From an uncultured Chloroflexia bacterium (GTDB lineage Bacteria > Chloroflexota > Anaerolineae > Anaerolineales > UBA4823), in the NCBI GenBank assembly GCA_963744375.1, contig CAVUTH010000008.1, positions 6,746-70,745 on the forward strand: a stretch of 64,000 nucleotides of DNA, in the 5' to 3' direction. Below, one piece after another: positions 3,883 through 64,000 of this stretch. The stretch's first letter is position 1, and each line of letters begins with the position of its first letter. The translations under genes and the position numbers were made by a program. The notes beneath the pieces are model-generated. The model ran no database searches. It saw nothing but the letters and a program-made list of their open reading frames with translations, and was not told the DNA's origin.

Positions 3883-4951
3883 TTAATTATTAGTAGTCAG
3901 CCGTCCTCTGTCCTCCATTCGCCGTCTGCCGTCTGCGGTCTGCCGTCGTCCGTCGGCCGTCGATTCGCGCACTACCAGCTCGGCCGACAGGAGCACATGC
4001 TGCAGCGGGGACTCGGGCTGTTCCACCCTGGCAATCAGCAGCCGGGCGGCCTCCTTCCCGATGGCGAAGACATCCTGGTGCAGGGTGGTCAGCGGCGGCT
4101 CCTGGAAGGCCGCCAGCGGGATGTCGTCGAAGCCGATCACCGAAATATCCTGCGGCACGGCGCAGCCCGCCTGGCGCAATGCGTGGATGGCGCCGATCGC
4201 CATGCGGTCGTTCTGCGCGCAAACTGCGCTGAAGTTGTAGCCGTTCTCCAGCAGCGTGCAGACAGCCCGGTAGCCCGAACTCAACCGTCCAGTCGCCTTC
4301 CAGGGTGCAGTCGGTTTGCGGCATCACCCCGGATTCCGTCAAAGCAGCCAGGAAGCCTTCCAGCCGCTCGCGGGTGCAGTCTTCGACCAGCGGGCCGGTC
4401 AGGCAGGCAATCTGGCGGTGGCCAAGCTCCAGCAGATGCGTTGCGGCAGTATAACCGGCCTGCCAATCGTCCAGCGAAACGGTATCCACGCCGTCGGAAT
4501 CGGTATGCACGCCGGCGTATACCAGCGGCGCGGTTCCCTTGGCCAGGCGGTGGCGCCCGTCCGAATAGGGATTGAAGACGATCAGGCCGTCGGCGCGCCG
4601 GCTGTGAATCAGCTCTTCCACCAGGCAGGCGAAGGTTTGCTCGTCGGGTGCGGAGGCCGAGAGCAGGAAATAACCCTGCTGCCGGGCGTACTGCTCGGCG
4701 CCTTCGATCATGCTGGCAAAGGTGAAATCGATCAGGTTGGGAGAAAAGCAGGCCAGCAGGTGCGTGCGCCCGCGCGCCATGCTGCCGCGCCACTTCATTG
4801 CGGCGGTAGCCCAGCTGCTGGATGGCCTGATCCACGCGGCTGCGGGTTTCGGGGTTGACCCGCTCGGTGGCGTTGATCACCGCGAGACCGTCTGGTGCGA
4901 GACCCCAGCCAGGGCGGCGACATCACGGAGGGTAACACGGGAGCGCGGCAT
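3883..4951 (-). pseudogene. LacI-family transcriptional regulator, at least 3 frameshifts
   Basis: The ATG at 4951 gives MPRSRVTLRDVAALAGVSHQTVSR and then a stop. The HTH continues in another frame (VINATERVNPETRSRVDQAIQQLGY, ORF 4281..4880). The sugar-binding core is in ORF 3890..4798 (FLLSASAPDEQ...LIVFNP...VSLDDWQAGY) and the C-terminus in ORF 3883..4284 (FSAVCAQNDRMAIGAIHALRQAG..VIGFDDIPLA...ELVVREST). Frame changes fall near 4878, 4795 and 4285. Confidence 0.8.
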
Positions 4952-4995
4952 GCTAAGCAGGCAGGCTTTAAGTAGTGGGTTGTGGGTTTGGGCCG

Positions 4996-5023
4996 ATGTT
5001 ACCGGTCACGTGACCGGTAACAT
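4996..5023. promoter_or_regulatory. perfect 28-bp palindrome, candidate LacI-type operator
   Basis: ATGTTACCGGTCAC|GTGACCGGTAACAT is perfectly self-complementary. It lies 45 nt upstream of the LacI-family start codon. Confidence 0.5.
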
Positions 5024-5251
5024 GATTCTATGAGAACCGGATGTGTTTGTCAAGAGGGAATTTTTGTGCGAACGTTCGCCTGTTCGAACGGATTCCATAA
5101 TTTCTTGGTACGATGGATGTAATCTCGAAAGACGAAGTCAGAAGGGAAGTGAAAAAATGCAGAATATGGCGCCAGCTGCCCTCGCGTTGCTCGCTGGTTT
5201 GCCGCCTCGCAGGAAATGCTGTTGGCGTGGCGCATTTTGCGCCAGCAGCAT

Positions 5252-5662
5252 TTATTTGGCCATTGGTTTTTCCAGGTACTGATCGTCACTGACCTGCTCC
5301 ATCCAGTTGGCCATCGTTCCAGCGACACTGGCATAGATGGCGATGTAAGTCAGGGCTGAGCTGGGCGCGGCACCGTGCCAGTGCTTTTCATTGGGTGCGA
5401 AGGTAACGATATCCCCAGGGAAGATTTCTTGCACTGGGCTGCCCCAGCTTTGCACTCGACCGCAGCCGGAAGTCACGATCAGGACCTGGCCCTGTGGGTG
5501 GGTGTGCCAGGCCGTGCGCGCCCCCGGCTCGAAAGTGACGCTGATGCCGGTCACATTCCCAAGCGGAGTGGGTTCAAATAAGGGATCCACCCTTACCCGG
5601 CCGGTGAAATATTCTGCCGACCCTTGCTGAGAAGGCTGAGTGCCAATTCTTCTTATTTCCAT
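5252..5662 (-). CDS. cupin domain protein
   Basis: 136-aa ORF with cupin motifs (GARTAWHTHPQGQVLIVTSGCG...GDIVTFAPNEKHWHGA). GAGGAG lies upstream of the ATG. Confidence 0.75.
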   Translation of the reverse strand: MEIRRIGTQPSQQGSAEYFTGRVRVDPLFEPTPLGNVTGISVTFEPGARTAWHTHPQGQVLIVTSGCGRVQSWGSPVQEIFPGDIVTFAPNEKHWHGAAPSSALTYIAIYASVAGTMANWMEQVSDDQYLEKPMAK

Positions 5663-5681
5663 GTTCTGCTCCTCATTTGGT

Positions 5682-5755
5682 TGTCACCCTAAGAGAAGGG
5701 TCAAATCCTTTGCTTCGCTCAGGATGACTGGCTTTGCGTGGCCCACAGAGTGCGG
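5682..5755 (-). repeat. interspersed palindromic (REP/MITE-like) element, copy D
   Basis: TGTCACCCTAAGAGAAGGGTCAAATCCTTTGCTTCGCTCAGGATGAC...GCGTGGCCCACAGAGTGCG. It is homologous to copies at 18264, 51632, 57707 and 62012. On the minus strand its GGTGACA end lies 19 nt upstream of the cupin start. Confidence 0.6.
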
Positions 5756-8183: not shown

Positions 8184-8298
8184 CGCTGCGCCTCCTGGCA
8201 CTATTTTAATATATCGAGTGAAAATTAATAAGGGACGTTGGGTTATCCACATTAACAATAGCTAAATAGATCGGAGAGTATAAAACCAGATAAAGATG

Positions 8299-10608: not shown

Positions 10609-10623
10609 GAGTAAGCCTGGCCG

Positions 10624-11465: not shown

Positions 11466-12714
11466 CTACGGCGCGACTTCGAGCAGCTCCACGTCGAAGA
11501 CCAGCGTGGCGTTGGCCGGGATCGGCCCGCTGCCGGTTTCGCCGTAAGCCAGGGCTGCCGGGATGCGCAGCTGGCGCTTGCCGCCCACCTGCATACCTGC
11601 CAGGCCCTCATCCCAACCTGGGATGACTCCGCCCTCGCCCAGGACGAAGGTGAAAGGCTCACCGCGGTCCACCGAGCTGTCGAACTGAGTGCCGTCTTCC
11701 AGCCAGCCGGTGTAGTGCACCGTCACGGTTTGGCCGGCTGCGGCGCTGGCGCCGTCGCCCTTAACGATGTCGTAATACTGCAGGCCGCTATCGGTGGTGG
11801 TGTAGTCCGCCGGGTCTACCTCGGTCTGCGTCACGGGCTCTTTCACGTCGGTCAGCGCGATCTCCATGATCAGCGTGGCGTTCGGCGGAATGGCGTTGGC
11901 GCCCTGCTCGCCCAGTGCAATTTCCGGCGGGATGACCAGCTGGCGCGTGCCGCCCACTTTCATGCCCTGCACACCTTCTTCCCAACCGGGGAAGACCGTG
12001 TCGCCGCCGCCAACCTTGAAGCTGATCGGCTGGCCTTCTGGCGAGCTGACAATGTATTCGTTGGCTCCCTCGCCCTGCACCCAGATGGTGTACGTGGTGG
12101 ACACGACGCTATCACTCTTCGCCTCGGCGCCATCGCCTTCGGTGATGTCGTAGTACTTCAGTCCGCTATCGGTGGTGGTCATGTCCGACTCAGACACCTC
12201 GGCAGGCATGGGCGGCTCTTCCACGGAGAGGAGCTCGACATCCAGCACGATCTGGCTGTTGGGCGGAACGCTGCCGTAGCCTTGCTCGCCAAAGGCCAGC
12301 TCTGCGGGGACCGCCATCTTGGCAGTGCCGCCGGCTTTCATCAGCGCCAGGCCTTCTTCCCAGCCGGGGAGCAGCTCATCGCGGCCCATGACGGCTTTGA
12401 TCGGCTGGCCAGAATTCCTGGCTGTTAATCACCTGCGTGCCGTCCGGTAGTGAGAGCACGAAGTTCATGGTCAGTATATCGCCGTCCTGCGGCGTGCGTC
12501 CGTCGCCGGCTACCTGCTCCAGGTACTGTACGCCGTTGGCGGTTGTTTCGGCGCCTTCCAGCGTGATGCTGGTGGGAGCGGCTGGCCCACTAATTTCCGG
12601 GACCTCGGTCGGCAGCAGTTCATCAGGAATGGGGGTGGCCGCCTGGCAGGCAGCCAGGGCGGTGGTCAGGATAATCAGGATCGACACGGCGATCCAACGG
12701 GTATTTCTCTTCAC
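11466..12714 (-). CDS. FKBP-type peptidyl-prolyl isomerase lipoprotein with three tandem FKBP domains (one frameshift)
   Basis: ORF 12376..12714 supplies the lipoprotein signal (ILTTALAAC) and the first half of domain 1. ORF 11466..12389 supplies the rest. The motif GWEEG..MK.GG......P...A.G..G...IPPN..L....EL recurs three times. The frame changes near 12395-12415. Confidence 0.8.
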
Positions 12715-16839: not shown

Positions 16840-18234
16840 ATGAAAAATATGAGTAGAAAAGCAATTTTTTGGATTGTTGGCATTGTCCTTGTCGCGGGTC
16901 TGGCCGCAGGCGGCTACTATTATTTCACCACACAGGCGGCGCAGGCTGAAAGTGAAGCCGCAGCCGAGGCCGAGCTGCAGACCGCGGTGGCCCGCTTGGG
17001 CGAGCTGACGGTCCTGGCCAGCGGCACCGGACAGGTGACTCCGACCAGCGAGATCGGCGTCGGTTTTGACGAAAGCGGCACGCTGATCGAGCTCAATGTC
17101 GCTCCGGGTGATGCCGTCCAGCCGGGGCAGGTGCTGGCCCGTTTGCAAACCAAGAACAGCGAACAGGATATTGCCGCATCTATCTCAGATGCCGAGCTGA
17201 ACGTGATCCGCGCCCGGCAGAGCCTGGACGACCTGTACACCAACGCCGAGCTCAACCGCACCACCGCCCTGAACAGCATCGCCGAGTATGCCCAGGCAGT
17301 GCGCGATGCCCAATATACGCTGGATAACTATACGCTGACGGCCGAGCAGGAAAAGATGGATGCCATCGAAGCCCTGGATATCATGCAGCAGAGGCTGGAG
17401 CAGGCTACCGCCGCTTTTGAGCCTTATCGCTACCTGGAGATTACCAACGAAACGCGAACGGATCGGCTCACGGCGCTTACCCTTGCTCAAACCAATTTCG
17501 ACGCAGCCGTCAAGCGCTTGAACTACGAATACGCCCTGCAGGTGGCTAAAGTGAACCTGGATAAAGCCCGCCAGGAGTACGAGCAGTATACCGCCGGGCC
17601 GGCCGCCGACGACCTGGAGCTGGCGCAAGCCGAGCTGGCCAATGCTGAAGCCAAGCTGGCCCTGGCGCAAGAAGCCCAGTCGATTATCGAGCTCAAAGCG
17701 CCCATCGCCGGCACTGTTATGGCGGTGGATGCCAGCCTGGGCGAAGTGCTGAGCACTGCTGCCATTATCACTCTGGCCGACCTGGAGATACCCACCCTGG
17801 ATGTTTACCTGGATGAGACGGATTTAGATAAGGCGGTTGTCGGCTACGACGCCGAGGTGGTCTTCGATGCCCTGCCGGATCAAAGCTTTACTGGTAAAGT
17901 GGTCAGCGTCAGTCCCGGATTGCAGTCGGTGGGCAACACCCAGGCGGTGCTGCTGCGCGTCCAGCTCGATACGGCCGGTGTGCAGGTCAACCTGCCGGTC
18001 GGCTTGAACGCAGCCGTAGATATCGTCGCCGGGAGGGCAGAAAATGCCGTCCTGGTGCCGGTGGAAGCATTGCGCGACCTGGGCGACGGGCAGTATGCCG
18101 TCTTCGTCATGGAAAACGGCGAGCCGACCCTGCGTGTGGTCGAAGTGGGTCTGATGGATGTCACCTATGCCGAGATCCTTTCCGGTCTGGAAGCGGGTGA
18201 GGAAGTCACCACCGGCATTGCGCAGACCCAATAA
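16840..18234 (+). CDS. HlyD/MacA-type periplasmic adaptor (membrane fusion protein)
   Basis: 464-aa ORF with an N-terminal TM anchor, a long coiled-coil hairpin and C-terminal beta-barrel domains (IIELKAPIAGTVMAV...). It is followed by the ABC ATPase and the FtsX permease. Confidence 0.85.
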   Translation: MKNMSRKAIFWIVGIVLVAGLAAGGYYYFTTQAAQAESEAAAEAELQTAVARLGELTVLASGTGQVTPTSEIGVGFDESGTLIELNVAPGDAVQPGQVLARLQTKNSEQDIAASISDAELNVIRARQSLDDLYTNAELNRTTALNSIAEYAQAVRDAQYTLDNYTLTAEQEKMDAIEALDIMQQRLEQATAAFEPYRYLEITNETRTDRLTALTLAQTNFDAAVKRLNYEYALQVAKVNLDKARQEYEQYTAGPAADDLELAQAELANAEAKLALAQEAQSIIELKAPIAGTVMAVDASLGEVLSTAAIITLADLEIPTLDVYLDETDLDKAVVGYDAEVVFDALPDQSFTGKVVSVSPGLQSVGNTQAVLLRVQLDTAGVQVNLPVGLNAAVDIVAGRAENAVLVPVEALRDLGDGQYAVFVMENGEPTLRVVEVGLMDVTYAEILSGLEAGEEVTTGIAQTQ

Positions 18235-18263
18235 GAAGTATTTACTATGAACCCATATGGAGT

Positions 18264-18325
18264 TGTCATCCTGAGCGCAGCGAAGGATCTAGATTCTTCA
18301 GTCGCTGCTCTCCTTCAGAATGACA
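18264..18325 (+). repeat. interspersed palindromic (REP/MITE-like) element, short variant, copy E
   Basis: TGTCATCCTGAGCGCAGCGAAGGATCTAGAT...TCCTTCAGAATGACA. The arms are related to copies A-D. It ends 13 nt before the ATG at 18339. Confidence 0.45.
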
Positions 18326-18338
18326 GGGAGTAGGCTGT

Positions 18339-19077
<739 letters not shown>

Positions 19078-19091
<14 letters not shown>

Positions 19092-20316
19092 AGTCATCCA
19101 GATCGCCTGGAAGGGCCTGACCAAAAACAAGCTGCGCTCGCTGCTCACCATGCTGGGCGTGATCATCGGTGTGGCGGCAGTCATCATCATGATCGCCATC
19201 AGCGCCGGCACCGAGGCGGCCATCGAAGAGCAGATCACCTCCCTGGGCAGCAACCTGATTTTCGTCTCACAGAGCTTCCAGCGCATGGGCTTTGGCCCTG
19301 GGCAGCGAGCGGAGGAGGGCGGCGGCCTGGTCTACGACGATGCCTTTGCCATCGCCGACCAGGTGGAGGGTGTGACCAATGTGGCGGTCGAGCAGGAGAG
19401 CATGGAAACGGTGGAAGCCGGCAATGCTTCGCTCAACTCGGTGCAGATCCTGGGCACCACGCCGGATTTCCCCGAAGTGCGCGATATGAGCCTGGATCAG
19501 GGGCGCTACTTCACCCAGCAGGAAGTCGACCGCAAGCAAAAAGTGGCCGTCCTGGGTTCTTCCCTGGCGGAAGAGCTGTTCGGCGAGCAGACTGCCGTCG
19601 GCCAGACGGTAAGCGTTGGCGATACCAAGCTGGCCGTGATCGGCGTCTTCGAAGAGCGCGGCCTGGTGGGCAATGTTGATTTCGACATGCGCCTGTACAC
19701 CCCCATCACGGTCGTCTTCCAAAAGTTCACCCCTTCCTTCATGGCGCGCGTCATGGGCGACCGGGTGCGCATGATCTATGTCAAGGTAGACGACTCGAAA
19801 GCACTGGACGATATCATCCTGCAGATCCAGCTGCTGCTGGCCAAGCGCCACGACGTCAGCCTGGAAGAAGCCGACTTCACCATCACCACCCAGCAGGATA
19901 TCATCAGCACCCAGGAATCGACCACCGCGGCTTTCCGCGACCTGCTGGCCTGGGTGGCGGCGGTTTCGCTGGTGGTGGGCGGCATCGGCATTATGAACAT
20001 CATGCTGGTCAGCGTTACCGAGCGCACGCGCGAGATCGGTTTGCGCCAGGCGGTAGGCGCCGCGCCCAATGACATCCGCTGGCAGTTCCTCACCGAAGCC
20101 CTGCTCTTGAGCATGGTCGGCGGCCTGATCGGTGTGCTGGTTGGGGTGGGCGGCGCCTGGCTGTTTGGCCAGCTGGGCGGCATGCGCACCGTCATCGTCC
20201 CCAGCTCGGTGCTGATCGCTTTCGCCTCCGCCGCGGCAGTGGGCGTGTTCTTCGGCTTCTACCCCGCCAACAAAGCCGCCCAGCTGGACCCGATCGAGGC
20301 GTTGAGGCATGAGTGA
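19078..20316 (+). CDS. ABC transporter permease, MacB/FtsX family
   Basis: 412-aa ORF overlapping the ATPase by 14 nt. It has an N-terminal TM, a large periplasmic domain and a C-terminal FtsX-like three-TM bundle (GIGIMNIMLVSVTERTREIGLRQAVGA). Confidence 0.9.
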
Positions 20317-30566: not shown

Positions 30567-30796
30567 AAGTCCCTCCTGGATCTAAAGGAAGAAAGCCGGT
30601 TATTTTTCGTAATTATACCGCAATTATCGGGATATAATGATTCTCACGTCCTGGGGGGATCACCCTGGACCAGGGACGCAAAGATAAACACTTAACCTGG
30701 TGAGCTTTGCGCCCTGGCGAAGGTCAGCCGGGAAATCAGCTTTGCGTGAGTATATTCTTGAAACTTCCCGTATAATCCTTCCCAGGAGGTAGCTCT

Positions 30797-32146: not shown

Positions 32147-32163
32147 TATGAAGGAGTTTCACT

Positions 32164-33735: not shown

Positions 33736-33748
33736 TCCCCTCGAGCGG

Positions 33749-41982: not shown

Positions 41983-42170
41983 CGTGCTGTCCCTTCTATA
42001 GGCGGATTGATTTCCCGTCGTATATTGCACAAGAATATCATAATTCAGTTTTCTATTGGAGAATTTTGGCAGAAAATGGCAAGCCTGGTAACTCACCGGT
42101 TGATATAGTTCAGAGCATCAAACGGCGCCCATGGAGCGCCAATATTCACCAGTTTATTTTGGAGGAAACC

Positions 42171-47595: not shown

Positions 47596-48264
47596 ATCCC
47601 AATCTCCTATTCGAAAGGTGCATAAATTGGTAAGGGTTTTTCGGAGGCGCGTTGAAACCAATGCGGCAAAATAAACGCGCAGATGACGTGGTTTTGGGTT
47701 AAACCGGTCTTTTAAAAATTGTCTCTCAGGAACAGCTTAACGCGGGTTCCTACGAGCGAGAGAATAGCTACTCGCCTAGGATCAGGACGTCAGGCCCATA
47801 ACCTTTCGGCCGGTCCAAAACCCACTGCCCAACTGACTTCGTGTGATAGCCAATGGTAAATCAGCCGGGCCTCATTGATGGAGGAGTAGAGGGTAGATCG
47901 TTTATCCAGGCGCCTCCTTCTTCGGGGAATAGAATCCCCCATTGCTCTACAAGCGACCAGGTGCTGAAAAGGCTGAGATGATCTTCCGGGTTTCACAAGG
48001 ATCAGCTATTTCCCCAAAAAGCTTTATAAGCTGACCTTGCCCGGTCTGGCAATTTGACTATTCAACACCAATAAGGTAAAAGAACTATGAAAAGATTATA
48101 GTATCATTACCCGGTTTGTCAATAGGTCAATATCGATATTGTCATAATTCTTAGCCTGGTTAAATATTAATGGTTTGCCAGCTGTCAATTGCAGAGGGGG
48201 TATTGATCGATCGATTAAGTTTGTGTTGAATTTGTGAATATTTGCGCGATAATAAATTAACTCG

Positions 48265-51200
48265 ATGATTCTTACCACACACACCGCCGGGGTTTCCGGT
48301 GGGGAGGGCTCAGGGGTGGAATACGAGGATTTTTCAATTAAGATTGAGCCGCGGCAGGGCGATGCCTACCCGGTGATCGTGCTGCGCTCGCCGGCGGGCG
48401 AAGGACGCTCGCAGTTCACCCCGCCCTTCGACCCTGCCCGCCTGGCGGAGCAAGCCGCTACCCTGGACCAGGAAGTGCGCACCCGCCAGCCGGCCTCCCG
48501 GGATGCCTCCCCGGCTGCCACCGCCAGCCTGCCGCAGCGCATCGGCGACCAGCTGTTCACCGCCCTGTTCTCGGGCGTGGTGCGCTCGTTATTCGACCGC
48601 TCTCTGGGTATGATGCAGGTGCAGCAGCGCGGCCTGCGCATCAAGCTGCACATCGACCCGGAAGACCCCAGCCTGGCAGCGCTGGTCGCGCTGCCGTGGG
48701 AATACCTGTACCGTAAAGAGACCCGCGAGTTCCTCAATCTCTCCCGTTTCACCCCCATCCTGCGCGACCTGGACGTGCAGCGCCCCTACATGCCGCTGCA
48801 GCTGGCTCTGCCGCTGCGCATCCTGGTCTTTGCCGCCGACCCGATCGATTACCCCCGCCTGGAGCTGGAGCGCGAACAGCAGCAGTTGGAAGCCTGCCTG
48901 GGGCGGCTGCCGGGCGTGCAGGCGGAATTCCTGCCCCACGCTACCCTGGCCTCCTTGCAAGAGCGCCTGGGCGAAGCGGCGTACCACGTGCTGCACTACA
49001 TGGGCCACGGCGGCTTCGACGAAGAGTCCGGCAGAGGCGTGCTGCTGCTGGAAGACGAAAATCAACGTGCGCAGCGCGTCGACGGCGGCACCTTAAGCGT
49101 TCTGCTGCACGATTTCGCCTCCCTGCGCCTGGTGTTCCTGAATGCCTGCGAAACCGCCCGCCTGGCCGGCGAGCATGGACTGGATCCCTTTGCCGGGGTG
49201 GCTTCGTCGCTGGTGATGACTGGCATCCCGGCGGTGGTGGCGATGCAGTTCCCCATCAGCGATCGGGCGGCGATCACCTTTGCCCAGCGTTTCTACGGTC
49301 TGCTCTCGCGCGGCCAGCCGGTGGATGCGGCGGTGGCTGAAGGACGGCGGGCGCTGCGCATGGCCGAGCCGGATACCCTCGAGTGGGGCACCCCGGTGCT
49401 TTTCACCAGCGCCCCCGATGGCGTGATCTTCACCGTAGCCGGCCAGCCCCAGGCCATTGCTGCTCCCGCGCCGCTGCACGCCGCCGCCGACGAGGTGGAT
49501 GCCGGCGAGCAGCTGCGCATCCAAAAGCTGTACAACGATGGCCTGGAAGCCTTCTGGCTGGAAGATTGGTCCCGGGCCGAAGCCTGCTTCAGCCAGGTGA
49601 TCGCCGCCCGGCCAGAGAACCAGGATGCCCGCCTCAAGCTGGATGAAGCCAGCCGCCGGCGGGAGCTGCAGGTGCAGTATGCCGCCGCCCAGTCTGCTCA
49701 GGAAGCCGGTGATTGGCCCGCCGCGATCGCCGCCCTGGAGCAGCTCGAAAAGCGCCAGCCCGGTTACAGGGATGTCTCCGAACGTCTGCAAGCAGTCCGC
49801 CGCAGTGCTCAGCTGGCCGACCTGTACGACCAGGCACGCCAGCTGTTTCAGGCGGCTCGCTGGACTGCCGTATTGAAGGTCTTTTCCCAGATCCGCACCC
49901 TGCAGCCCGATTACCCCGACCCCGACCGGCTGCTGGAGCAGGCCAGCAGCCAGGCCGAGGCTCAACGCCAGGCCACCGCTCTGGAGAAGAACTACCAGCA
50001 GGCTCTGGTCGAGCTGGATGCCGGGCGTTGGACGGAAGCCGAAGCCTTGCTGGAACGGGTGCTGGCACAGCAGCCCGATTACCGCCAGGCGCAAGCCTTG
50101 ATCTCCCGGGCGCAGGCCGAGCAGCGCCGCGCACTGGAAGAGCAATCCCGCCTGCAAGCCGAGCGTGAAAAGGAAGAAAAAATCCTCATCCTGTACCGGG
50201 AGGCGCAGGAGCAGCTGGCCGCCGGCAAGTTCAATGCCGTTCAGGCGCAGCTGCAGGCCATCCGGGCGATCGACCCGCAGTTTGACGATCCGCTGGAGGT
50301 GGAAGCGCAGGCCCAGGCCGGGTTGGAGCGCCAGGCCGGCGAGATGCAGCAGCAGGAGCAGCAGGCTGAGCACCTTGCTCGGATAGAATGGCGCTATGAT
50401 GAAGCCGTAAAGCTCCTGGCTGGCAAGGAATATCAGGCCGCACTGGATGCCTGGGAGGCGCTGCATGCGGATGCCCCCGCCTTCCCCGACCGGCAAGGAG
50501 TGGTCCGCAAGGCGCGGCGCGCCCTGGACAAAGCCGGCGAGGTGCAGCGGCAGGAGCAGCAGGCTGAGCACCTTGCTCGGATGGAATGGCGCTATGATGA
50601 AGCCGTAAAGCTCCTGGCTGCGAAGGAATATCAGGCCGCACTGGATGCCTGGCAGGCGCTGCATGCGGAGCCCCCGCCTTCCCCGACCGGCAGGGCGTGG
50701 TCCGAAGGCGCGGCCCTGGATAAGGCTGCCCACAGCAGCGCCCGGCGCTGGAAGAGCCCGCCTGGCCCGGGCCCGCGTTGGGCCTGGGTAGTTGGCGGGG
50801 TTACACTGCTTGCCTTGCTGGTGGGTGGATTTTTCCTGCTGCGCGGTCCTTTGCCTAAAAAGTATACGGACTACCAGGGCATCCCGATGGTACTGGTGCC
50901 GGCGGGGAATTTCATGATGGGCAGTGATTATTATGAGCCGGATGAACGCCCCTTCCACCAGGTGCGCCTGAGCAGCTACTACATCGATCTCTACGAAGTT
51001 ACCAATGCCCGCTATGCAAAATGCGTCTCTGCTGGGGCGTGCAAGCCTCCAGGGACATATTCTTCCCGCACGCAGGCGCAATATTATGACAGAGCTAACT
51101 ATTCAACTTACCCTGTGATTTATGTGAGCTGGGAGCAGGCGCAGGCTTACTGCCAGTGGCGCGGGGCGCGCCTGCCAACCGAAGCCGAATGGGAGAAGGC

Positions 51201-51618
51201 CGCCCGCGGTTCAAAACGCGCGAACCTACCCCTGGGGAAACAAGTTTGATGGCACGCGAAGTCAATTTTTGCGACCTGAAATGCCCAAATCCGGAGAACA
51301 ACAAGTCTTTCGACGGGTATGAAGATACCGCCCCGGTAAACATTTTCCCCCAGGGAGCCGGCCCCTACGGGGCGCTCAACCTGGCCGGCAACGTCTCGGA
51401 GTGGGTGGCAGACTGGTATGATCCGGATTTTTACGCTCACTCTCCAAATTCCAACCCCGTGGGACCGCCTTCCGGGAAGATGCATATTTTGAAGGGTGGT
51501 GATTTCGGTCTCCCGAGATTGCAATCTTCCGATCGCTATGCGGTTAGATCCCGGGTTTGCATCGGACGCTGCCGGTTTTCGCTGCGCTTACTCCCCGGGA
51601 CTATTATTTGGCTATTAA
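48265..51618 (+). CDS. CHAT (caspase-like) protease - TPR/helical repeats - TM - FGE-sulfatase (SUMF1) domain protein; 3 frameshifts in the last 400 nt
   Basis: ORF 48265..51249 has the CHAT dyad contexts HVLHYMGHGGF and LVFLNACETA, long helical repeats, the TM helix WAWVVGGVTLLALLVGGFFLL, and then the FGE domain MVLVPAGNFMMGS...YPVIYVSWEQAQAYCQWRGARLPTEAEWEKAARG. That domain continues out of frame (RTYPWGNKFDG / NFCDLKC...GNVSEWVADWY... / DPGFASDAAGFRCAYSP*) to 51618. Confidence 0.8.
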
Positions 51619-51631
51619 CGCAATGAGGAAA

Positions 51632-52864: not shown

Positions 52865-52910
52865 TTTCCAAATTTCAATTTCGAAATTCATCAAATTTCC
52901 CGAGGCCATC

Positions 52911-54153
52911 ATGACCGAACAACCTTCCTCCGCTTCTCCCCGCCTCTACTACCTGGACGCCCTGCGCGTCATCGCCATCCTGTTCGTCTTCCTGTTCCAC
53001 GCCGTCCATCCCTTCGATTTGAACGGCTGGCATGTCAAAAACATCGAACAAAGCCTGACCCTGACCGTGATCCTGGTCATCCTGTGGATGTGGGGCATGC
53101 CGTTCTTCTTTCTGATTGCCGGTGCAGGCAGCCGGCTGGCCTTGCGGCGGCGCAGCGCCAAAGAATTTGCCATCGAGCGCACCCGGCGCCTGGGTGTGCC
53201 CTTAATATTTTTGACGATTGCCTCTTTTTTCATTGCTACGTACTTCGAGTGGGGCAATAGGGTCTACCGGATGTCTACAGCCATCAGCTTTCCCGGATTA
53301 CCTGCTGGCCACCAAAGACTGGTTTCTGGACTTTGGCTTTTCTCCCATATGGTTGTCGCTGGGCGCCCATCTGTGGTTCCTGGGGTTTTTATACGCTTTT
53401 TCCATCCTATCATTACCGCTCTTTGTGTGGTTTAAAGGCACGCACGGCAGGGGCTTCATCGATTGGCTGGCCAGGGTTTGCAGCCATCGCGGCGGCCTGC
53501 TCATCTTTATCCTCCCGCTGCTTGCAATCCGTTATGTGCTCACCCCGCTCTTCCCGCAGGAGCACGATTGGAGCGACTTCATCTACCAGGGCGCCTTTTT
53601 CGTGATTGGCTTCTTGTTGTTCGCCGATGAGCGCATCTTGAAGGCTGTGCGCCGCGACGGCTGGCTGCTGGGCGCTGTCGGCCTGGCTGCGGTTGTCTTC
53701 ATGCTGGGGCTATATGGGCTGGGCTACGATGTCACGGGATGGGTCGAGGAATACGGTCAAGTTGGTTTTTACCTGGCGATTGGTATCATCACCCTGGTTG
53801 GCCTGACCTGGAGCCTGACCATGCTCTTCATCGGCATGCGCTACCTGGACCGGGACAGAGCCTGGGTGCGCTATGCCCAGGAGATAGCCCTGCCCTTCTT
53901 TATCGTGCACCAGCCGGTCATCCTGCTTTTTGCCTCGTTCATCGTCAAATGGGATGTGGGCATCCCGCTCAAGATGCTGGTCACGGTGGTCAGCTCCTTC
54001 TTCGTCTCCTGGGGATTGGTGGAGTTTGTCATCAAGCGCGTCGGCTTCCTGCGCTTCTTGTTCGGCATGACCTCGCACGGTCAAGCCTGTCAGGCAAGAG
54101 ACCCCGGCTGCAGCTGGCTGAGCGTCAGAACCTCTTACGGATTTTCCTGCTGA
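52911..54153 (+). CDS. acyltransferase family 3 (OpgC/OafA-like) membrane protein, paralog 1 (one frameshift near 53270)
   Basis: ORF 52911..53435 (RLYYLDALRVIAILFVFLFHAVHPF...MPFFFLIAGAGS) continues in ORF 53218..54153 (HLWFLGFLYAFSILSLPLF...ALPFFIVHQPVILLF...). Confidence 0.75.
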
Positions 54154-54201
54154 TTATCCCGCTGCCGTACCCTCAGCCGCCATCCTTGAAAGCCCAAAGC
54201 C

Positions 54202-55419
54202 ATGAACGACCGACCTGCCTCGTCCCAATCCTCCCCCCGCCTGTACTACCTGGATGCCCTGCGCGTCATCGCCATCCTGATTGTCTTCCTGTTTCACGCC
54301 GTCCATCCCTACGACATGTGGGACTGGCACATCAAGAACATCGAGCAGAGTCTGACTCTGACGATATTCATCACCATCCTGGCCCTGTGGGGCATGCCGT
54401 TTTTCTTTTTGGTCGCCGGGGCAGGCAGCTGGTTTGCCTTGCGGCGGCGCACGCCGAAACAATATGCCGTCGAGCGCACCAAACGCCTGCTGGTGCCTTT
54501 TCTATTCGGTACGCTGATCGTCTACGTCTACACCCAATACTTTCAGTGGGATAACCAGGTCTACCGGGGCGTCACCGATGCACCTTTCGCACAGTACATC
54601 CTGGAGAGTTTACGCTGGTACCTGACCTTAGGATTCACCCCACGATTGGGGAGTCGGCGTGCATCTGTGGTTCCTGGGCTTCCTGTGGTCTTTTGCCCTG
54701 CTCAGCCTGCCGCTCTTCCTGTGGCTCAAGGGCGAGAAAGGCCAGCACGCTTCTTGACCGCCTGGCCAAGGTGTGTGAAAAACGCGGGGCCTGCTCATCT
54801 TTTTCATCCCGCTGGTGCTGATCCGCTACCTCTTAGCCCGTTTTTCCCCGACGAGCATAACTGGAGCGACTTCCTGTTCCAGGGCTCGTTCTTCATCCTG
54901 GGCTATTTCGTGTTCGCCAGCGAGCGCATCCCCGCACTGTGAGGCGTGACGGCTGGTGGCTGGGAGGCATCGGTCTGGCGGCGGTGTTGCTGCTGTTGAT
55001 CATCTATCTCATAACCCTGCAGCCGGTGACTGGGCGGAGGCCTACGGCACGCCCGGCTTTTACCTGGTGATGGGCACTGTCGTCCTGATTGGCCTCACCT
55101 GGAGCCTGGCGATGCTCTTCATTGGCATGCGCTACCTGGACAAAGACGGGTCTGGGTGCGCTATGCCAACGAGCTGGCCCTGCCCTTCTTCATCGTCCAC
55201 CAGCCGGTGATCATCTTCATTGCCTCCTTCGTCGTCAAGTGGGAGCTGGCCACCCCGCTTAAGCTGGTCGTCACCGTGGTCGTCTCTTTCCTGGTCGCCT
55301 GGGGGCTGGTGGAGTTCGTCATCAAGCGGGTCGGCTTCCTGCGCTTCCTTTTCGGTATGCCCGCAAGACACTCGGACGTGAAGAAAGAATCGCAGCCTAC
55401 GCCTGTTGACGTTGGGTGA
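54202..55419 (+). pseudogene. acyltransferase family 3 membrane protein, paralog 2, at least 4 frameshifts
   Basis: ORF 54202..54942 begins almost identically to paralog 1 (RLYYLDALRVIAILIVFLFHAVHPY...MPFFFLVAGAGS). Later segments are scattered across frames (ORFs 54956..55210 and 55156..55419, ending ...VEFVIKRVGFLRFLFGM...). Confidence 0.7.
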
Positions 55420-55523
55420 TGGAAAAGAAACCACCGATAAAGCAGATGAACGCCGGATATCATCGGGCGGCTGCCGAGTGAGGTACAAGTGAGATACCCG
55501 GTGTTCCTGCCAGTGGTCAGAAA

Positions 55524-57793: not shown

Positions 57794-57847
57794 TTCTGCG
57801 GCTATTTCGTGGTTTATCTCGACTGATCCTGTCTTATAATAGCCTCC

Positions 57848-58850
57848 ATGCCGCCCATCCTCACCACCAACCAGCTTGCCAAGCATTTCCAGGTACCCAC
57901 CCGCCAGGAAGGGTTGAAAGCTTCCATCGGCGCCCTGTTCCACCGCACCTACAACACCGTCAAAGCCGTGGACGGGGTCTCCTTCCAGATCGAGCCGGGG
58001 GAGGTGGTCGGCTTTCTCGGGGCCGAACGGCGCCGGCAAGACCACCACCCTCAAGATGCTCAGCGGGCTGCTGTACCCCACCGGCGGGCAGGTGCGCGTG
58101 CTGGGCTTCGAGCCCTCCCGCCGCGACCACGGACTTACCTGCGCCAGATCACCCTGGTGATGGGCAACCGCAACCAGCTCGCCTGGGACCTGCCGGCGCT
58201 GGATTCGTTCGAGCTGCAGCGCGCCATCTACGGCATCCCGCACGCGGATTTCAGCCGCACGCCGCGACGAGTTCATCGAGCTGCTGGAGCTGAAAGACCT
58301 GGTGCAACAAGCCGGTGCGCAACCTGTCGCTGGGCGAGCGCATGAAGATGGAGATCGTCGGCGCGCTGCTGCACCGCCCGAAGGTGCTCTTCCTGGACGA
58401 GCCGACCATCGGCCTGGATGTGACCATGCAGCGCCGCATCCGCACTTTCGTGCCGAGTACAACCGCCGCTACGGGGCCACCGTGCTGCTCACCAGCCACT
58501 ACATGGCGGATGTGGAAGCGCTGTGCAAGCGGGTGATCGTCATCCACCACGGGCAACTGCTCTTCGACGGCGAGCTGAGCCAGCTGGTGGAGACGCTTCT
58601 CCGCCTTCAAGACCATCGGCGTGACCCTGGCAGAACGGCGGCGCCGACCTGATCTGCCTACGGCGAGGTGATCAGCCAGGAGGGCGGCCAGGTCACGCTG
58701 CGCGTGCCCAAAGCCGAGACGCCCCAGGTCACCGCCCGCCTGCTCGCCGAGCAGCCGGTCGACGACCTGACCGTGGAAGACCCGCCCATCGAAGATGTCA
58801 TCGAGCAGGTCTTCGCCCAGACACGCGCCGGATGGAGCAGGCTGGCATGA
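57848..58850 (+). pseudogene. ABC-2-type transporter ATP-binding protein, multiple frameshifts
   Basis: ORF 57848..58345 starts the NBD ([13 protein letters not shown], then [15 protein letters not shown] out of frame). ORF 58315..58536 has [35 protein letters not shown] 58302..58652 has [34 protein letters not shown] 58668..58850 has the C-terminal domain. Confidence 0.75.
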
Positions 58851-59660
58851 GACGCTACGCTCGACTATCTACCTGACCACGATGAAGCATCGCCATCCTG
58901 ACGCAGTTCCAGTACCGGGTGGCGAATTATTTCTACATGATCGGCATGATCGCCGAGCCGGTGATCTACCTGGTGGTCTGGTCGACGGTGGCCAGTGCGC
59001 AGGGCGGCTCGGTGGGCGGCTATACCCCGGCGCAGTTCGCCGCCTATTACATCGTCTGGACGCTGGTGCGCAACATGAACATCGTCTTCACCCCCTACGG
59101 CTGGGAGTGGCGCATCCGCGCAGGGCAGCTCTCCGGCGAGCTGCTGCGCCCGATCCACCCGCTGCACCGCGATGTGGCCTATTTCGCCGGCTGGAAGGTG
59201 GTCGTGATCATGCTGTGGCTGCCGCTCGCCGCTGGTCCTTTCGCTGATCTTCAAGCCCGACTCTGCACCCCACCTGGTACCAGGGCGTGGTCTTCTTCTT
59301 CGCCATCTGGGGCGCTTACCTGATCCGCACCATGCTGCTCTCGCTGCTGGGCATGATCACCTTCTGGACCACGCGGGTGGGCGCGATCTTCGAGCTGTTC
59401 TTTGCCGTCGAGCTGATGCTCTCCGGGCGCCTGGTGCCGATGACCCTGATGCCGCCGTGGGTGCAGCAGCGTGGCCGCTTACCTGCCCTTCCAGTGGACC
59501 TTCTACTTCCCCATCGAAGCCCTGGTCGGGCAACTGACCGCCGCAGCAGCTGCTCATCGGGCTGGGCATGCAGCTGCTGTGGATCGTGATCGGCTTGGTG
59601 GCGGTCAACCTGCGTGTGGCAGTTCGGCATCCGGCGCTTCTCGGCGGTAGGGAGATCTGA
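58847..59660 (+). pseudogene. ABC-2 family permease (DUF990-like), multiple frameshifts
   Basis: The ATG at 58847 overlaps the ATPase stop (ATGA). ORFs 58919..59323 (VANYFYMIGMIAEPVIYLVVWS...YGWEWRIRAGQLSGELLRPIHPL) and 59287..59589 carry the TM segments in different frames. Confidence 0.65.
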
Positions 59661-59663
59661 GAC

Positions 59664-60470
59664 ATGAGGCGTCATGCGTATCCGTCTAGGCTGAGCCTGC
59701 TGACCTACTCTGCGCATCGGCATCGCCAACGAGCTGCAGTACCGCGTCAACTTCTTCATCCAGATGCTGCAATCGCTCATTGCCCTGGCGATCGGGCTGA
59801 TCGGGCTGTGCGCTGGTCTTCAGCCACACCGACCGAGCTGAGCGGCTGGACGCAGCCCGAGCTGCTGGCGGTGATGGGCGTCTACATCCTGATGGGCGGC
59901 GTGATCCAGCCTGCCATCCAGCCCAACATGCAGCGCCTGATGGACGAGATCCAGCAGGGCACGCTGGATTTGCCCTGACCAAGCCGGCGGATGCGCAGGT
60001 GCTGGTCAGCGTGCGCGAGTTCCGCTTCTGGCAGCTGGTGGACGTGGTCGTGGGGCTGGTGGTGCTGGCATGGTCGCCCTGCTGCAGATGGCAGGCCTGT
60101 CGTTGCTGGCAGCAGGCGCTGGCCTTCATCGCTCGCCCTGCTGCTGGGCGGGGTGATGATCTACTGCTTCTGGCTGATGCTGACCTCCACCGCCTTCTGG
60201 GTCGTGCGCGTCGATGAGATGGTCAACCTGTTCCAGGGCGTGTACGCCGCCGGGCGCTGGCCGGTGGGCATCTACCCCGCCTGGCTGCGCCTCGGGCTGA
60301 CCTTCCTCGTCCCGGTGGCTTTCGCCGTCACCGTCCCGGCCGAAGCGCTCACCGGGCGCCTGACCTGGCAGACCCTGCTCTTCGCGGCTGCCCTGGCGCT
60401 GGGGCTGCTGCTGGTTTCGCGTTGGATCTGGAAGAAGGGGGTGAGGAATTATTCGGGCGCCTCGGCGTGA
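59664..60470 (+). pseudogene. ABC-2 family permease (DUF990-like), multiple frameshifts
   Basis: The start is the ATG at 59664. ORF 59664..59978 (…LSGWTQPELLAVMGVYILMGGVIQPAIQPNMQRLMDEIQQGTLD) and ORF 59991..60470 (…FWLMLTSTAFWVVRVDEMVNLFQGVYAAGRWPVGIYP...) are in different frames. Confidence 0.65.
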
Positions 60471-60925: not shown

Positions 60926-61936
60926 ATGAGCACAGGCTTGTCCAAAGCAGAAAAACTGAGGGAGATGGAGTGGCATTACTGCGAGCGGGCCTACAGCGAC
61001 AGCGAGATGGCTGCCAGGCTGGGTGTCGACCGCTCTACTGCTTACCGCGACCGCATCCTGCTGACCACGCAGGTGCCGCTCGAAGAGGTTCAGCCAGGGC
61101 GCTGGAAGATCGACCGCGCTACCTACCTCTCTAACCTGCGGCTGAACCTGCACGAAGCCCTGGCATTTACCTGACGGCGCGTCGCGCCCTCCCGCCAGAC
61201 CTTTAGCGCCCAGCCGCACCTGGCCGGCGGGCTGGAGAAGCTGTCCAGCGTCCTACACAGCCAATGACTGGGCTGTCCTAGCCCCGGTGCAGAAAGAGAG
61301 TGCGATGGCTGTCGCCAGCCAGGACGACAGCAGCAGGACTCGCCTGCAGGCGCTGGAAACGATCGACCGCGCCTGGGTGGAGCAGCGCCGGGTGCGCCTG
61401 CGCTATCACTCGATGACCCGGCCGCGACCCGTTTTCCATACCGTCGACCCCTACCTGATCGAACCTTCCCTGTGGGACACGGGCACCTACCTGATCGGCT
61501 ATCTCTGGACTCTCACCAGGAGCTGACCACCTTCAAGTTGAGCGCATCGAGTCGGCGGAGCTGTTGGCCGAGACATTCACACTACCGGCGGATTTCGACG
61601 ACAGGGAACTTCTGCGCTACGCCTGGGGCATCTGGGTCGACGAGGACGGCCCGGAAGCGGTGAGGCTGCGCTTTTCCCCCGGCCCTACCGCCCGCCGCCT
61701 GCGTGAGAGCGTCTGGCATCCCACTCAGCTGGTATGCGAATCGGACGAGGCGGCTGCACCTGGGAGGCCCAGGTGAACGACTGGCGCGTGATCCTGCCCT
61801 GGGTGCGCTCGTGGGGCCCGGACTGCGAGTGCTGGCGCCGGAGGGCTTGAGGGAGCAGGTGAAGGAGGAGGCGGGGAAGATGGCGGGGATGTATGGGGAG
61901 GAGGCGCACCAAGTGAGGAGAAACCTCCACCGCTAA
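60926..61936 (+). pseudogene. HTH-WYL-WCX transcriptional regulator (cas-associated type), several frameshifts
   Basis: The ATG at 60926 sits behind GGAGG. HTH: MSTGLSKAEKLREMEWHY...MAARLGVDRSTAYRDRILL (ORF 60842..61174). WYL core: RRVRLRYHSMTRPRPVFHTVDPYLIEPSLWDTGTYLIGY (ORF 61287..61526). C-terminal part: ORFs 61564..61776 and 61703..61936. Confidence 0.7.
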
Positions 61937-62011
61937 GGCGCGAAGAGCGCTAAGAATTCTCTCGCCTTGGGGAGATCACCCAGGACCCTGCGCCGCCGCA
62001 CAGCCCGCAAA

Positions 62012-62098
62012 GCTGCTCGCACTATGTGGGCCATACAAACCGACTGTCATCCTGAACGAAGTGAAGGATCTAAACCCTGCGCAAGCTCAAGGTGACAC
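62012..62098 (+). repeat. interspersed palindromic (REP/MITE-like) element, copy B
   Basis: GCTGCTCGCACTATGTGGGCCATACAAACCGACTGTCATCCTGAACGAAGTGAAGGATCTAAACCCTGCGCAAGCTCAAGGTGACAC. It ends 22 nt before the ATG at 62121. Confidence 0.75.
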
Positions 62099-62120
62099 AT
62101 GAAAAAAGGAGAGAATCCAA

Positions 62121-62437
62121 ATGGCAAAGAAGACTGTTCAGGAAAACCAGGAACCTAAGCGGTTGGTAGTCAGCCCGACGACCCGTGTGTTGTGGGAAAA
62201 CATAGCGCCGGAAGATTACGCACTGATCAACCTAGAACACAACCGGCTGTCGCTGCCAACCTGGAAGAGATAAACCGCACGATTATCAAGATAAATCAGG
62301 ATATCAAAGGCATCCGGGGCTGGGTGGGTTTCTTCGGCTTCCTGGCTATCCTGTCGTTCATTGGGGCTTTGGTGGCAACCTGCAATGCGCTTCTGAGTTT
62401 AACATTTATACACTTCATGTTGATTGCTGTTTGGTAA
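62121..62437 (+). CDS. small hypothetical single-pass membrane protein between WYL regulator and cas3 (one frameshift)
   Basis: The ATG at 62121 sits behind AAGGAG and gives MAKKTVQENQEPKRLVVSPTTRVLWENIAPEDYALINLEHNRLSL, then a stop. ORF 62192..62437 continues ANLEEINRTIIKINQDIKGIRGWVGFFGFLAILSFIGALVATC.... Confidence 0.4.
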
Positions 62438-62601
62438 GCCAAATCCGGTATGGTAATATTGCTAAAGAGAGGGATTTGGATGCACCCGGAATGGGTTGCG
62501 ATTCTATGCAAGCATCCAGCTATTTGTGTGGTACGTAAAGAAAATATAGGTCAATCCGTTAGCCAAAGTAGACTAGGGTAGAGACGCGGGATCGAAACAT
62601 C

Positions 62602-64000
62602 ATGGCATATTTTGCCCATTCAAACGAGCTAGGACAGGAAAACTGGCAGAGCCTGCAGGCGCACCTGCAAAACACTGCTGCCCTGGCCTACAGAATGGCA
62701 GCCGGGATTGGGCTGGCAGATTTTGTAAACATTATCGCTGCAATGCATGATATTGGGAAATATTCAAGGAGTTTCCAGAAGAAGCTGGAAGGACATTCGA
62801 TTAAGGTCGACCATTCAACCGCGGGGGCACAGTCCTTCGGCTGTTCGTTGCCAATCAGAACCAGAGGGTAATTGCTAAACTCCTGGCCTATTGCATTGCC
62901 GGGCACCATAGTGGCCTGCCTGATTATGGGAGTGAAATGGATTTTAAGCACCGATGGGACTTTACTAGGGCGTTTGAAAAAATCCATTGAGAGATTATCG
63001 AGATTATTCCAAGGAAATAGATGTATCTCTATTTCAGCCTGCCAGTAATGATTCCGATCAAGCCCATTAAAGGGAACGTTGGTTACAGCCTGTTTTTTTT
63101 TCACAAGAATGCTGTACTCAATTTTGCCGTAGAATGTACAGATTACCCTAGAACACAGAGAACTTTATTCAGGCTGGAAGGGTTTCCAGAGGTAATTTTC
63201 TCTAATCTACCAGAACTGTGCAGTAAATATACTCAATTCCTGGAGAGATTTTGACCAGCCAATCGGCTCGATCAACGCCCGTAGGACGCACACACTGAAA
63301 TCCTGTATCCAGAAAGCTGCAGAGAACCGCGGGATTATTATCCTTAACCGTGCCAACTGGTGGGGGCAAGACATTTTCATCAATGGCATTTGCACTTTAA
63401 CCATCCCCAGATTCACGGGATGGAGCGGGTTATTTATGTCATTCCGTATACCAGCATTATCGAGCAGAATGCCGCAGTATTCAAAGATTGCCTCGGTTCT
63501 GACAATATATTAGAACATCATTCCAATTTTGATGTGGAGAAGGCGACAAGTCAAACTCGAGTCGAAGAATGCTGACGATTCCACGTCAGTGTAATAAGCA
63601 ACTCAAACTGGCATCCGAAAATTGGGATATTCCGATCGTCGTGACTACCAATGTCCAGTTCTTCGAGTCCTTGTTTGCCAATAAACCCTCCCGTGCCGCA
63701 AATTGCACAATATGGCAAAGAGCGTCATTATTTTCGATGAAGCCCAAATGCTTCCGCGAGAATACTACAACCATGTCTTTAGCAGTATCTAAGAACTTGT
63801 AAAAAACTACGGTGCAACAGCAGTAATTTGCACAGCCACTCAACCAGCGGTTAAACGGTTTTTCCCGGTGGGTGCAAAATTTACGGAATTGGCGCCTGAC
63901 CCACCAGGCCTATTTGATTTTTACAAGCGAGTTCAGGTTGATAATCTTGGAAAGATCCCGGATCATGAGTTAATCCAAAGGACTAATGACCAACAGCAAG
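62602..64000 (+). pseudogene. cas3: CRISPR-associated Cas3 (N-terminal HD nuclease fused to DEAD/DEAH helicase), many frameshifts, continues past window end
   Basis: HD domain: MAYFAHSNELGQENWQSLQAHLQNTA...AAMHDIGKYSRSFQKKL...KVDHSTAGAQ, then LLAYCIAGHHSGLPDYGS out of frame. Helicase pieces: PTGGGKT (out of frame near 63355), [58 protein letters not shown] and [10 protein letters not shown]-like segments in shifting frames. Confidence 0.8.

Follow-up and report, generated by a model that had tools for sequence, protein, structure and literature searches.

Clustered frameshifts in an Anaerolineae metagenome-assembled genome as very probable consensus errors of long-read assembly

The frameshifts that interrupt many genes in this Anaerolineae metagenome-assembled genome (MAG) are very probably not biological, and comparative and statistical evidence points to patchy, insertion-biased consensus error of long-read metagenome assembly. 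The indels are private to this assembly, occur genome-wide and reach essential genes, and they fall without regard to codon position, coding status or gene borders. Our analysis covers a stretch of 64,000 nucleotides on contig C8, referred to as the window (Table 1), and the whole 4.8-Mb, 9-contig MAG. Gaps were counted against G001, a MAG of the same genus that represents a different species-level lineage (82-97% identity). Most of the sequence would have been well corrected, with kilobase-scale patches left near the quality of an unpolished contig, probably where effective read depth was low or polishing failed. In such patches a small indel would occur about every 60-100 nt, usually as a single additional base placed at random; genes beneath a patch would look shredded and genes outside it intact.

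Published densities of frame-shifts per kb are 14.8 for raw long reads, 6 for contigs assembled from long reads and 1.2 once short reads have been used for polishing (Arumugam et al. 2019, PMC6469205). The dense patches described here, with 10-18 per kb, resemble the raw-read and unpolished-contig values, and the clean blocks, with 0-1, resemble polished sequence. Long-read error is also a known source of false pseudogenes (Kastor, PMC12007338). As in other long-read assemblies, single-base indels fragment conserved genes, including essential ones, and lower CheckM-type completeness. Unlike the published errors, those in this MAG are strongly patchy (varying between 0 and 18 per kb over a few kb), insertion-dominated and not tied to homopolymers.

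If the indels are consensus errors, this record would yield incorrect gene calls, incorrect numbers of pseudogenes and incorrect estimates of completeness, and any account of defence-island decay based on it would be incorrect too. Real, selected genes would have been made to look dead, among them those for the 1,623-aa nSTAND1-WD40-Bmp protein, the type I CRISPR-Cas locus and the ABC-2 exporter. Readings of the LacI gene and the toxin-antitoxin modules as decayed, and of a compensated frameshift patch in the CHAT gene, should be weighed as artefact-affected. Artefact and decay can be separated without reads by the codon-position spectrum, dN/dS, the insertion/deletion ratio, the uniformity over codon slots and a check of essential genes.

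Dense patches and clean blocks in the window

Table 1. Interrupted genes, dense patch B and clean blocks in the window
Feature	Coordinates	Strand	Observation
LacI-family regulator gene	3883..5023	-	indels at ~4279 (extra A), 4786 (extra C), 4881 (base missing) and 4971 (extra A) vs G001:C211
Triple-FKBP lipoprotein gene	11469..12693	-	one frame switch near 12408
MacA/MacB-type efflux operon	16840..20316	+	three intact ORFs; orthologous to G002 at 74-79%
Threefold-repeat secreted protein gene	29062..30566	-	indels at 29725 and in a cluster at 30112-30163 vs G001:C144
Clean block	30744..34440	+	0-1 gaps vs G001; substitutions 13.5% in 30744-32484
BNR/sialidase-like repeat protein gene	33785..35871	-	single extra T at 33942 and at 34569
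nSTAND1 NTPase-WD40-PnrA/Bmp-like gene	37149..42091	-	~50 small indels vs intact orthologue
Dense patch B core	38600..42900	.	57 indels of 1-2 nt, mean spacing 77 nt
Cupredoxin-like lipoprotein gene	42171..43753	+	~14 one-base insertions in 5' half (42192-42900), none from 43000 on
DUF11-type giant surface protein gene	43920..47661	-	one frame switch near 44520-44562; rest is a 1109-aa ORF
CHAT-TPR-FGE-sulfatase gene	48265..51626	+	994-aa ORF, 2.7 kb clean; frame changes only past ~51015
Two tandem Acyl_transf_3 paralogues	52887..55420	+	first ~1 frame switch, second at least 5
ABC-2 exporter operon (ATPase and two ABC2_membrane_6 permeases)	57842..60413	+	at least 12 frame switches
WYL-domain regulator gene	60962..61915	+	4 frame switches; WYL and WCX Pfam hits
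cas3 (HD and DEAD helicase)	62572..64000	+	at least 6 frame pieces; joined pieces match Cas3_HD and DEAD

A sequence-only reading of the window had noted that specific genes are shredded next to intact multi-kb neighbours. The frame changes are present in the genes that it named, where Pfam profile coordinates run continuously over the junctions. The nSTAND1 alignment (residues 97-428) is continuous over five junctions, and in the second acyltransferase paralogue a single Acyl_transf_3 alignment (residues 3-306) covers all five. ABC_tran (residues 44-184) crosses four junctions and ABC2_membrane_6 three, Peripla_BP_1 of the LacI protein is continuous over one, and the joined FKBP translation contains three FKBP_C domains. 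The counts of that reading hold as lower bounds but were too low, its 'at least 12' for the STAND-WD40 gene corresponding to about 50 gaps relative to the orthologue. Its separate BMP domain is in fact the C-terminus of this same gene, which G001 carries as a single ORF of 1623 aa or more (L109 2133-7001); in the window, WD40 and Bmp also match over junctions, Bmp crossing one. The orthologous ORFs of G001 are unbroken.

Clustering of the indels is equally clear. Frameshifting gaps relative to G001 vary between 0 and 18 per kb, with a variance-to-mean ratio of about 6 (26 one-kb bins). The multi-kb neighbours consist of single long ORFs and, where comparable, are nearly free of gaps, with 0-1 in each of 30744-32484, 32364-34440 and 48296-49400 (0 in the last). 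We also considered whether short-read polishing had converted the clean blocks to alleles of the G001 type, and rejected this, since a 3-5% difference from G001 persists in these blocks, with third codon positions contributing most of it.

The window region 37177-43805 shows 65 gaps against G001:C64, of which 56 are 1 nt and five are 2 nt long; 51 are single extra bases in the window and five are single missing bases. Nanopore consensus is expected to be biased towards deletions and homopolymers, whereas the spectrum here is insertion-dominated and non-homopolymer. The sequence-only reading had placed some indels in homopolymers and others outside them. The G7 run (30144-30150) does contain a true homopolymer indel, with two G fewer in G001, and 38 of the 56 one-base gaps lie outside homopolymers. 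Homopolymers were rejected as the main driver on the basis of the gaps against G001 and between near-identical repeats. Neither a sequence motif nor a strong trinucleotide enrichment was found at the indels when methylation or another motif was tested as the cause.

Within this region, patch B spans two divergent genes plus the spacer between them. Its right edge is sharp and falls inside the cupredoxin gene, and the intergenic interval 42000-42132 has an indel density equal to that of the neighbouring coding DNA. Indel spacing inside the patch is Poisson-like (CV 0.98), and insertions are distributed uniformly over the three codon slots (16/14/21). A further dense patch, C, includes the ABC-2 operon and extends to the contig end. 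Its segment 59213-60533 has 23 gaps relative to G001:C164, 12 of them 1-nt and five 2-nt extra in the window. Single-base gaps also separate the two Acyl_transf_3 paralogues in their DNA alignment. In the LacI gene the indels are isolated, and the frame switches fall at 4257/4275 and 4788/4791. No Rfam match was found within the window. In a search for related loci that excluded the window's own record, the closest named relative was an Anaerolineae MAG at 54% amino-acid identity.

Indel density correlates positively with how far the local sequence diverges from G001 (rho 0.53). It is possible that the patches mark switches of the assembly path to a rarer, more divergent co-occurring Anaerolineae population. 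In that case two lineages ~8-14% apart would be combined in a mosaic MAG, and the density of indels would indicate where the path switches, as opposed to random low-depth spots. Divergence from G001 predicts the patches incompletely, however, since 30744-32484 contains no gaps over 1.7 kb at 13.5% mismatches, versus 10-18 per kb at 8% elsewhere. Separately, and with the same reserve, a few isolated indels (LacI, toxin-antitoxin modules, DUF11) could be genuine differences, because G001 belongs to another species-level lineage.

The same artefact could also have arisen by another mechanism, in which both alleles at a strain-polymorphic site were written into the consensus, one after the other. 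The predominance of single extra bases and the correlation with divergence would agree with it, as would the presence of at least two related populations in the sample. The latter follows from the last 26.8 kb of contig C6, a fold-back that joins two 92%-identical alleles differing mostly at third positions. We nevertheless regard this mechanism as improbable, because strain-SNP sites should favour third positions and transitions. Instead, the insertions outside homopolymers are even over codon slots, the extra base forms a transition pair with a neighbouring third-position base in only 7 of 35 cases, and an adjacent mismatch accompanies only 12 of the 51 insertions.

Selection on the interrupted genes and damage to core genes

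No relaxation of selection is evident in the interrupted genes. In the most shredded one, the STAND-WD40-Bmp gene, 71, 49 and 253 mismatches to G001 fall at the first, second and third codon positions (68% at the third); with its 50 gaps, the gene retains 93% amino-acid identity and a dN/dS of 0.15. Clean neighbours have values of 0.04-0.16, the cupredoxin and BNR genes 0.12 each, and the LacI gene 0.19 with no in-frame stop. Same-frame interruptions in the HMM scan blur with true gene borders, so stops were checked by projection onto orthologues, and none was found inside genes, either in the window or in the C6 patch described below.

That patch (C6:646-655 kb) covers the genes for S10, L4, L23, L2, S19, L22, S3, L16 and EF-Tu. 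Against G001 it shows 76 gaps, 50 of which are 1-nt extra, and the same sites are flagged against G002, a second, independent relative. The dN/dS of this ribosomal-protein/tuf patch is 0.04-0.17. The adjoining 5.8 kb (C6:660152-666000) contain two gaps, and fusA, also on C6, is shredded as well.

The sequence-only reading had proposed two causes for the pattern. Under the first, accessory, defence and signalling genes (STAND-WD40, ABC-2, WYL, Cas3, LacI, toxin-antitoxin) are selectively pseudogenised and useful operons kept under selection. Within the window, the genes with the most damage do belong to the accessory or defence class, and several conserved operons are unbroken; this apparent selectivity results from viewing a single window. 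Across the MAG, equally dense patches lie over ribosomal-protein genes, tuf and fusA, and dnaK, ftsZ, gyrA and groEL contain frame switches. In addition, the gene with ~50 indels has a dN/dS similar to that of its clean neighbours and lacks nonsense codons, patch edges lie within genes, intergenic DNA is equally affected, and block 30744-32484 shows no link between the density of indels and the divergence in substitutions. The natural bacterial mutation spectrum is deletion-biased, and 51 one-base insertions versus 5 deletions are unnatural for it. Selective decay is thus very unlikely. The second cause, indel-type assembly error concentrated in certain stretches, agrees with the essential-gene patches, the G001 comparison and the codon-slot and spacing statistics. 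Repeat-richness, one of the two settings suggested for it, contributes partially at best, since non-repetitive genes and intergenic DNA lie within dense patches too. Of the checks suggested at the time, comparison with related genomes showed intact orthologues, and dN/dS showed purifying selection.

Frame-switch load across the genome

A codon-model scan of the MAG detected ~1,070 strict same-strand frame switches, or 2.2 per 10 kb (3.2 on contig C8; range over C3-C9, 2.1-4.6). The rate is ~5 times that of G011, a control genome of the same family (GC 0.61; 0.45 per 10 kb). With a sensitivity of ~40% in simulation, the scan implies ~2,000 indels in the MAG. At least one frame switch is present in 735 of 4,934 coding chains (~15%), and Pfam domains continue over the junction in six of ten randomly sampled chains. 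The same holds for EF-Tu (tuf), DnaK, FtsZ, GyrA, GroEL and BipA, in which Pfam domains cross the frame switches. The net direction is +1 genome-wide (758 vs 312); a direction bias in the detector had been suspected, and simulation revealed none. The same scan yielded a few tens of nonsense-interruption candidates at most.

Signs of the error also appear where the assembly can be compared with itself. Between near-identical repeats, 109 of the 118 gaps are one-base, both copies of the rRNA operon differ mutually by one-base gaps, and the end of C3 and the start of C4 overlap over 3.3 kb at 97.1% identity with 22 gaps. The fold-back that ends C6 is a further assembly defect.

The fraction of interrupted chains and a CheckM-type completeness of only 87.9% for a nine-contig genome could suggest a lineage that has entered an early phase of reductive evolution, in the manner of recently host-restricted bacteria, and has ~15% of its genes genuinely inactivated. 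We consider this even less likely than selective decay. Single-copy essential genes, including those for EF-Tu, FtsZ and ribosomal proteins S3, L2 and L16, are broken, purifying selection is intact, and nonsense candidates are far outnumbered by the ~1,000 frame switches. Poisson patches adjoin clean blocks, and the one-base gaps extend to rRNA operon copies and contig-end overlaps. In host-restricted genomes such as those of Mycobacterium leprae and Sodalis, nonsense codons, deletions and IS insertions occur together, dN/dS is relaxed and the translation machinery is intact. The MAG resembles them in its large fraction of frameshifted genes, and differs in showing neither this mixture of lesions, nor relaxed dN/dS in dead genes, nor a spared translation machinery. 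Natural recoding, in which programmed ribosomal frameshifting, transcriptional slippage or unusual decoding restores the frames in vivo, has nothing in its favour beyond joined translations that look functional. Its probability is negligible given ~50 shifts in one gene at non-repetitive, motif-free sites, the presence of both +1 and -1 shifts, the involvement of intergenic DNA and the lack of the shifts in the orthologues of two relatives.

Two further correlates of the presumed consensus error were considered. Although patch C reaches the end of C8, a contig-end effect was rejected, as enrichment is not consistent over the 18 contig ends. Frame-switch density increases with GC; we do not claim GC as a cause, since detector sensitivity itself rises with GC (from 7% to 64% in simulation) and the cas3 region, with a low GC of 46%, is also dense. 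Past the window on contig C8, cas5 and cas7 are fragmented too.

Frame breaks in the window

The studied MAG (G000) comprises nine contigs totalling 4.8 Mb, with completeness of 87.9% and contamination of 6.3%; the window covers 6746-70745 of contig C8, most of its 74.7 kb. The small number of very long contigs suggests a long-read assembly. A clean gene of the window has its closest named relative in an Anaerolineae MAG. Reading frames were traced along all contigs by a seven-state Viterbi path (six frames plus non-coding) under a codon-usage model trained on long ORFs of G000, and a frame switch was considered strict when it stayed on the same strand with both frames open across it. As a control, 333 kb of a genome from the same family (80 contigs, GC 0.61) was passed through the identical pipeline. 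When random one-base indels were planted in the control sequence, the strict test recovered ~40% of them, insertions and deletions equally.

At the genes listed as frameshifted in the sequence-only reading, the path moves to another frame of the same strand with no stop in between, and the blocks named there as clean are single long ORFs. Frame pieces were joined into conceptual translations and scanned against Pfam. The resulting alignments are continuous over five junctions for nSTAND1 (residues 97-428), five for Acyl_transf_3 (residues 3-306) and four for ABC_tran (residues 44-184), where the Walker A motif itself is split; three junctions are crossed in ABC2_membrane_6 and one each in Peripla_BP_1 and Bmp. 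The continuity of these domains and the long ORFs of the clean blocks confirm the initial observation. HD and helicase motifs of cas3 are spread over at least six stop-to-stop ORF pieces in different frames, which match Cas3_HD and DEAD once joined. This gene opens a low-GC (46%) CRISPR-Cas locus, which extends from 62572 to the end of C8 (~67,900 in window numbering), continues with cas5- and cas7-like pieces and is heavily frameshifted throughout. Another low-GC stretch, 8001-10000 (2 kb at GC 0.42 versus a background of 0.59-0.61), is called almost entirely non-coding by the codon model and is likely foreign DNA.

Features in the window and on contig C6 of G000 (window positions unless C6 is named; clean and dense refer to gaps versus G001, a MAG of the same genus)
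Feature	Coordinates	Strand	Remark
nSTAND1 NTPase, WD40 propeller, PnrA/Bmp-like substrate-binding domain	37149-42091	-	counterpart in G001: L109 2133-7001
Clean stretches	30744-32484; 43001-43805; 48296-49400
Dense stretches	39-43 kb; 59-60 kb
cas3, start of CRISPR-Cas locus	62572-64000		46% GC, unreadable for the codon model
Examples of C6 sites flagged versus both relatives	647033, 647048, 647548, 648285, 648818, 648904, 649074, 650081, 650415, 651360, 651823, 651966, 652101, 653275, 654572-654574

Genome-wide load and core genes

The scan of the whole assembly found 1,956 same-strand adjacent frame junctions, 1,070 of them strict. This corresponds to 2.2 strict switches per 10 kb (3.2 on C8 and 2.1-4.6 across C3-C9), versus 0.45 in the control. 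Given the ~40% sensitivity, the frameshifting indels of G000 would number roughly 2,000. Of the 1,070 switches, 758 have a net +1 direction, and among the 4,934 coding chains 735 contain switches. Ten of these chains were drawn at random from other contigs; in six, a Pfam domain runs over the junction, including GH3 beta-glucosidase, an Opp/Dpp-type ABC ATPase, RmlD, pyridoxal-dependent decarboxylase, GH77 and a glycosyltransferase. Contigs C1 and C2 have fewer detected frame switches and a GC of 0.53-0.54, versus 0.58-0.59 elsewhere. A 1.54-kb IS-like repeat is common to C1, C2, C3 and C7 with up to 99% identity. C1 and C2 may or may not belong to the same organism as the rest of G000 (contamination 6.3%).

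Essential genes, located by motif and then checked for junctions within conserved domains, are also hit. EF-Tu has a junction at 162, within GTP_EFTU (4-199), FtsZ has two in its conserved domain, and DnaK, GyrA, GroEL and BipA carry them there as well. The load is thus special neither to the window nor to accessory genes, whose selective decay had been raised as one possibility. The S10-spc ribosomal-protein cluster with tuf (C6:646-655 kb) shows 76 gaps versus G001, 50 of which are one extra base, and the majority of the gap sites are also flagged versus G002, an independent second relative. The adjoining fusA (C6:655-659 kb), alignable only to G002, has 43 gaps; the adjoining 5.8 kb at C6:660152-666000 have two. 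Ribosomal-protein genes on C6 contain one to six frameshifting gaps each at dN/dS of 0.04-0.17, with no internal stops. These core-gene indels cannot be real lesions in any organism.

Selection and the nature of the indels

G001 (300 contigs) provides collinear matches, 82-97% identical, to ~25 kb of the window. Frameshifting gaps versus G001 range from 0 to 18 per kb, with a variance-to-mean ratio of ~6, so the clustering noted from the sequence is strong. Within 37177-43805, DNA alignment to C64 of G001 yields 485 mismatches and 65 gaps: 51 single and five two-base extras in the window, and only five single missing bases. Some indels had been noted in homopolymers and others outside them; here, 38 of the 56 one-base gaps lack an adjoining identical base. 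On the right, the dense patch ends within the cupredoxin gene (at ~42,900-43,000), the divergently oriented neighbour of the STAND-WD40-Bmp gene, and indel density in the spacer equals that of the two genes. In the intergenic stretch 36033-36111, the window has extra CCCCAATT-like tandem-repeat tracts of 9 and 52 nt versus G001.

G001 encodes the nSTAND1, WD40 and PnrA/Bmp-like domains in a single uninterrupted ORF (at least 1,623 aa). Thus, the BMP domain, previously listed as a separate entry, forms the C-terminal end of the STAND-WD40 protein; this STAND sensor architecture is unusual and is masked in G000 by ~50 false frameshifts. A gene that had been dead for long enough to gather 50 indels should show unconstrained substitutions in the hundreds as well as several nonsense codons; projection of the STAND-WD40-Bmp gene onto the G001 frames revealed neither. 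Its mismatches fall at codon positions 1/2/3 as 71/49/253, with 93% amino-acid identity, dN/dS of 0.15 and 50 gaps. The cupredoxin gene, projected likewise, has dN/dS of 0.12 and 20 gaps. Both values are in the range of the clean neighbours (0.04-0.16), contradicting the genuine selective decay that had been offered as one explanation. Furthermore, 30744-32484 differs from G001 by 13.5% substitutions with zero gaps, so indel load does not follow evolutionary time.

The 57 small indels within 38600-42900 have a mean spacing of 77 nt and a CV of 0.98, as in a Poisson process, and no clear sequence motif was found at them. In near-identical repeats, including two rRNA operons, 109 of 118 gaps are one base. 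Published frame-shifts per kb are 14.8 in raw long reads, 6 in unpolished long-read contigs and 1.2 after polishing (PMC6469205). The dense patches (10-18 per kb) agree with the raw and unpolished figures, and the clean blocks with the polished one. Genome-wide load, essential-gene hits, normal dN/dS and Poisson spacing all favour the other explanation initially offered, indel-type assembly error. Judged from the sequence, the frameshifts present in the record are very probably a consensus-error artefact of long-read metagenome assembly rather than selective or general decay. Single indels that stand alone could in a few cases be genuine. Another candidate mechanism, in which the consensus carries the two strain alleles next to each other, is argued against by the even distribution of non-homopolymer insertions over codon slots (16/14/21) and by transition pairing with the adjacent third-position base in only 7 of 35.

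Patchiness and other assembly defects

Indel density correlates with local divergence from G001 (rho 0.53, 75 bins of 500 nt), and dS is 0.23-0.74 in dense patches versus mostly ~0.1 in clean blocks. Identity to G001 varies by block in the window and C6:646-666 kb: some blocks reach ~95-97%, others 82-92%. Dense patches may derive from a less abundant population of greater divergence, or may be low-depth or unpolished for another reason. Error-dense blocks do tend to be more divergent; 30744-32484, divergent but clean, is an exception.

The last 26.8 kb of C6 (1100024-1126810) fold back as a self-reverse-complement in perfect register. The two 13.4-kb arms are 92.3% identical, with 387 of 523 coding differences at third codon positions; they are two diverged alleles joined head-to-head in a chimeric contig end. 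The assembly therefore combines at least two related populations. The end of C3 (497312-500643) and the start of C4 (1-3320) are 97.1% identical over a 3.3-kb overlap that contains 71 mismatches and 22 small gaps; the two are probably one locus assembled twice.
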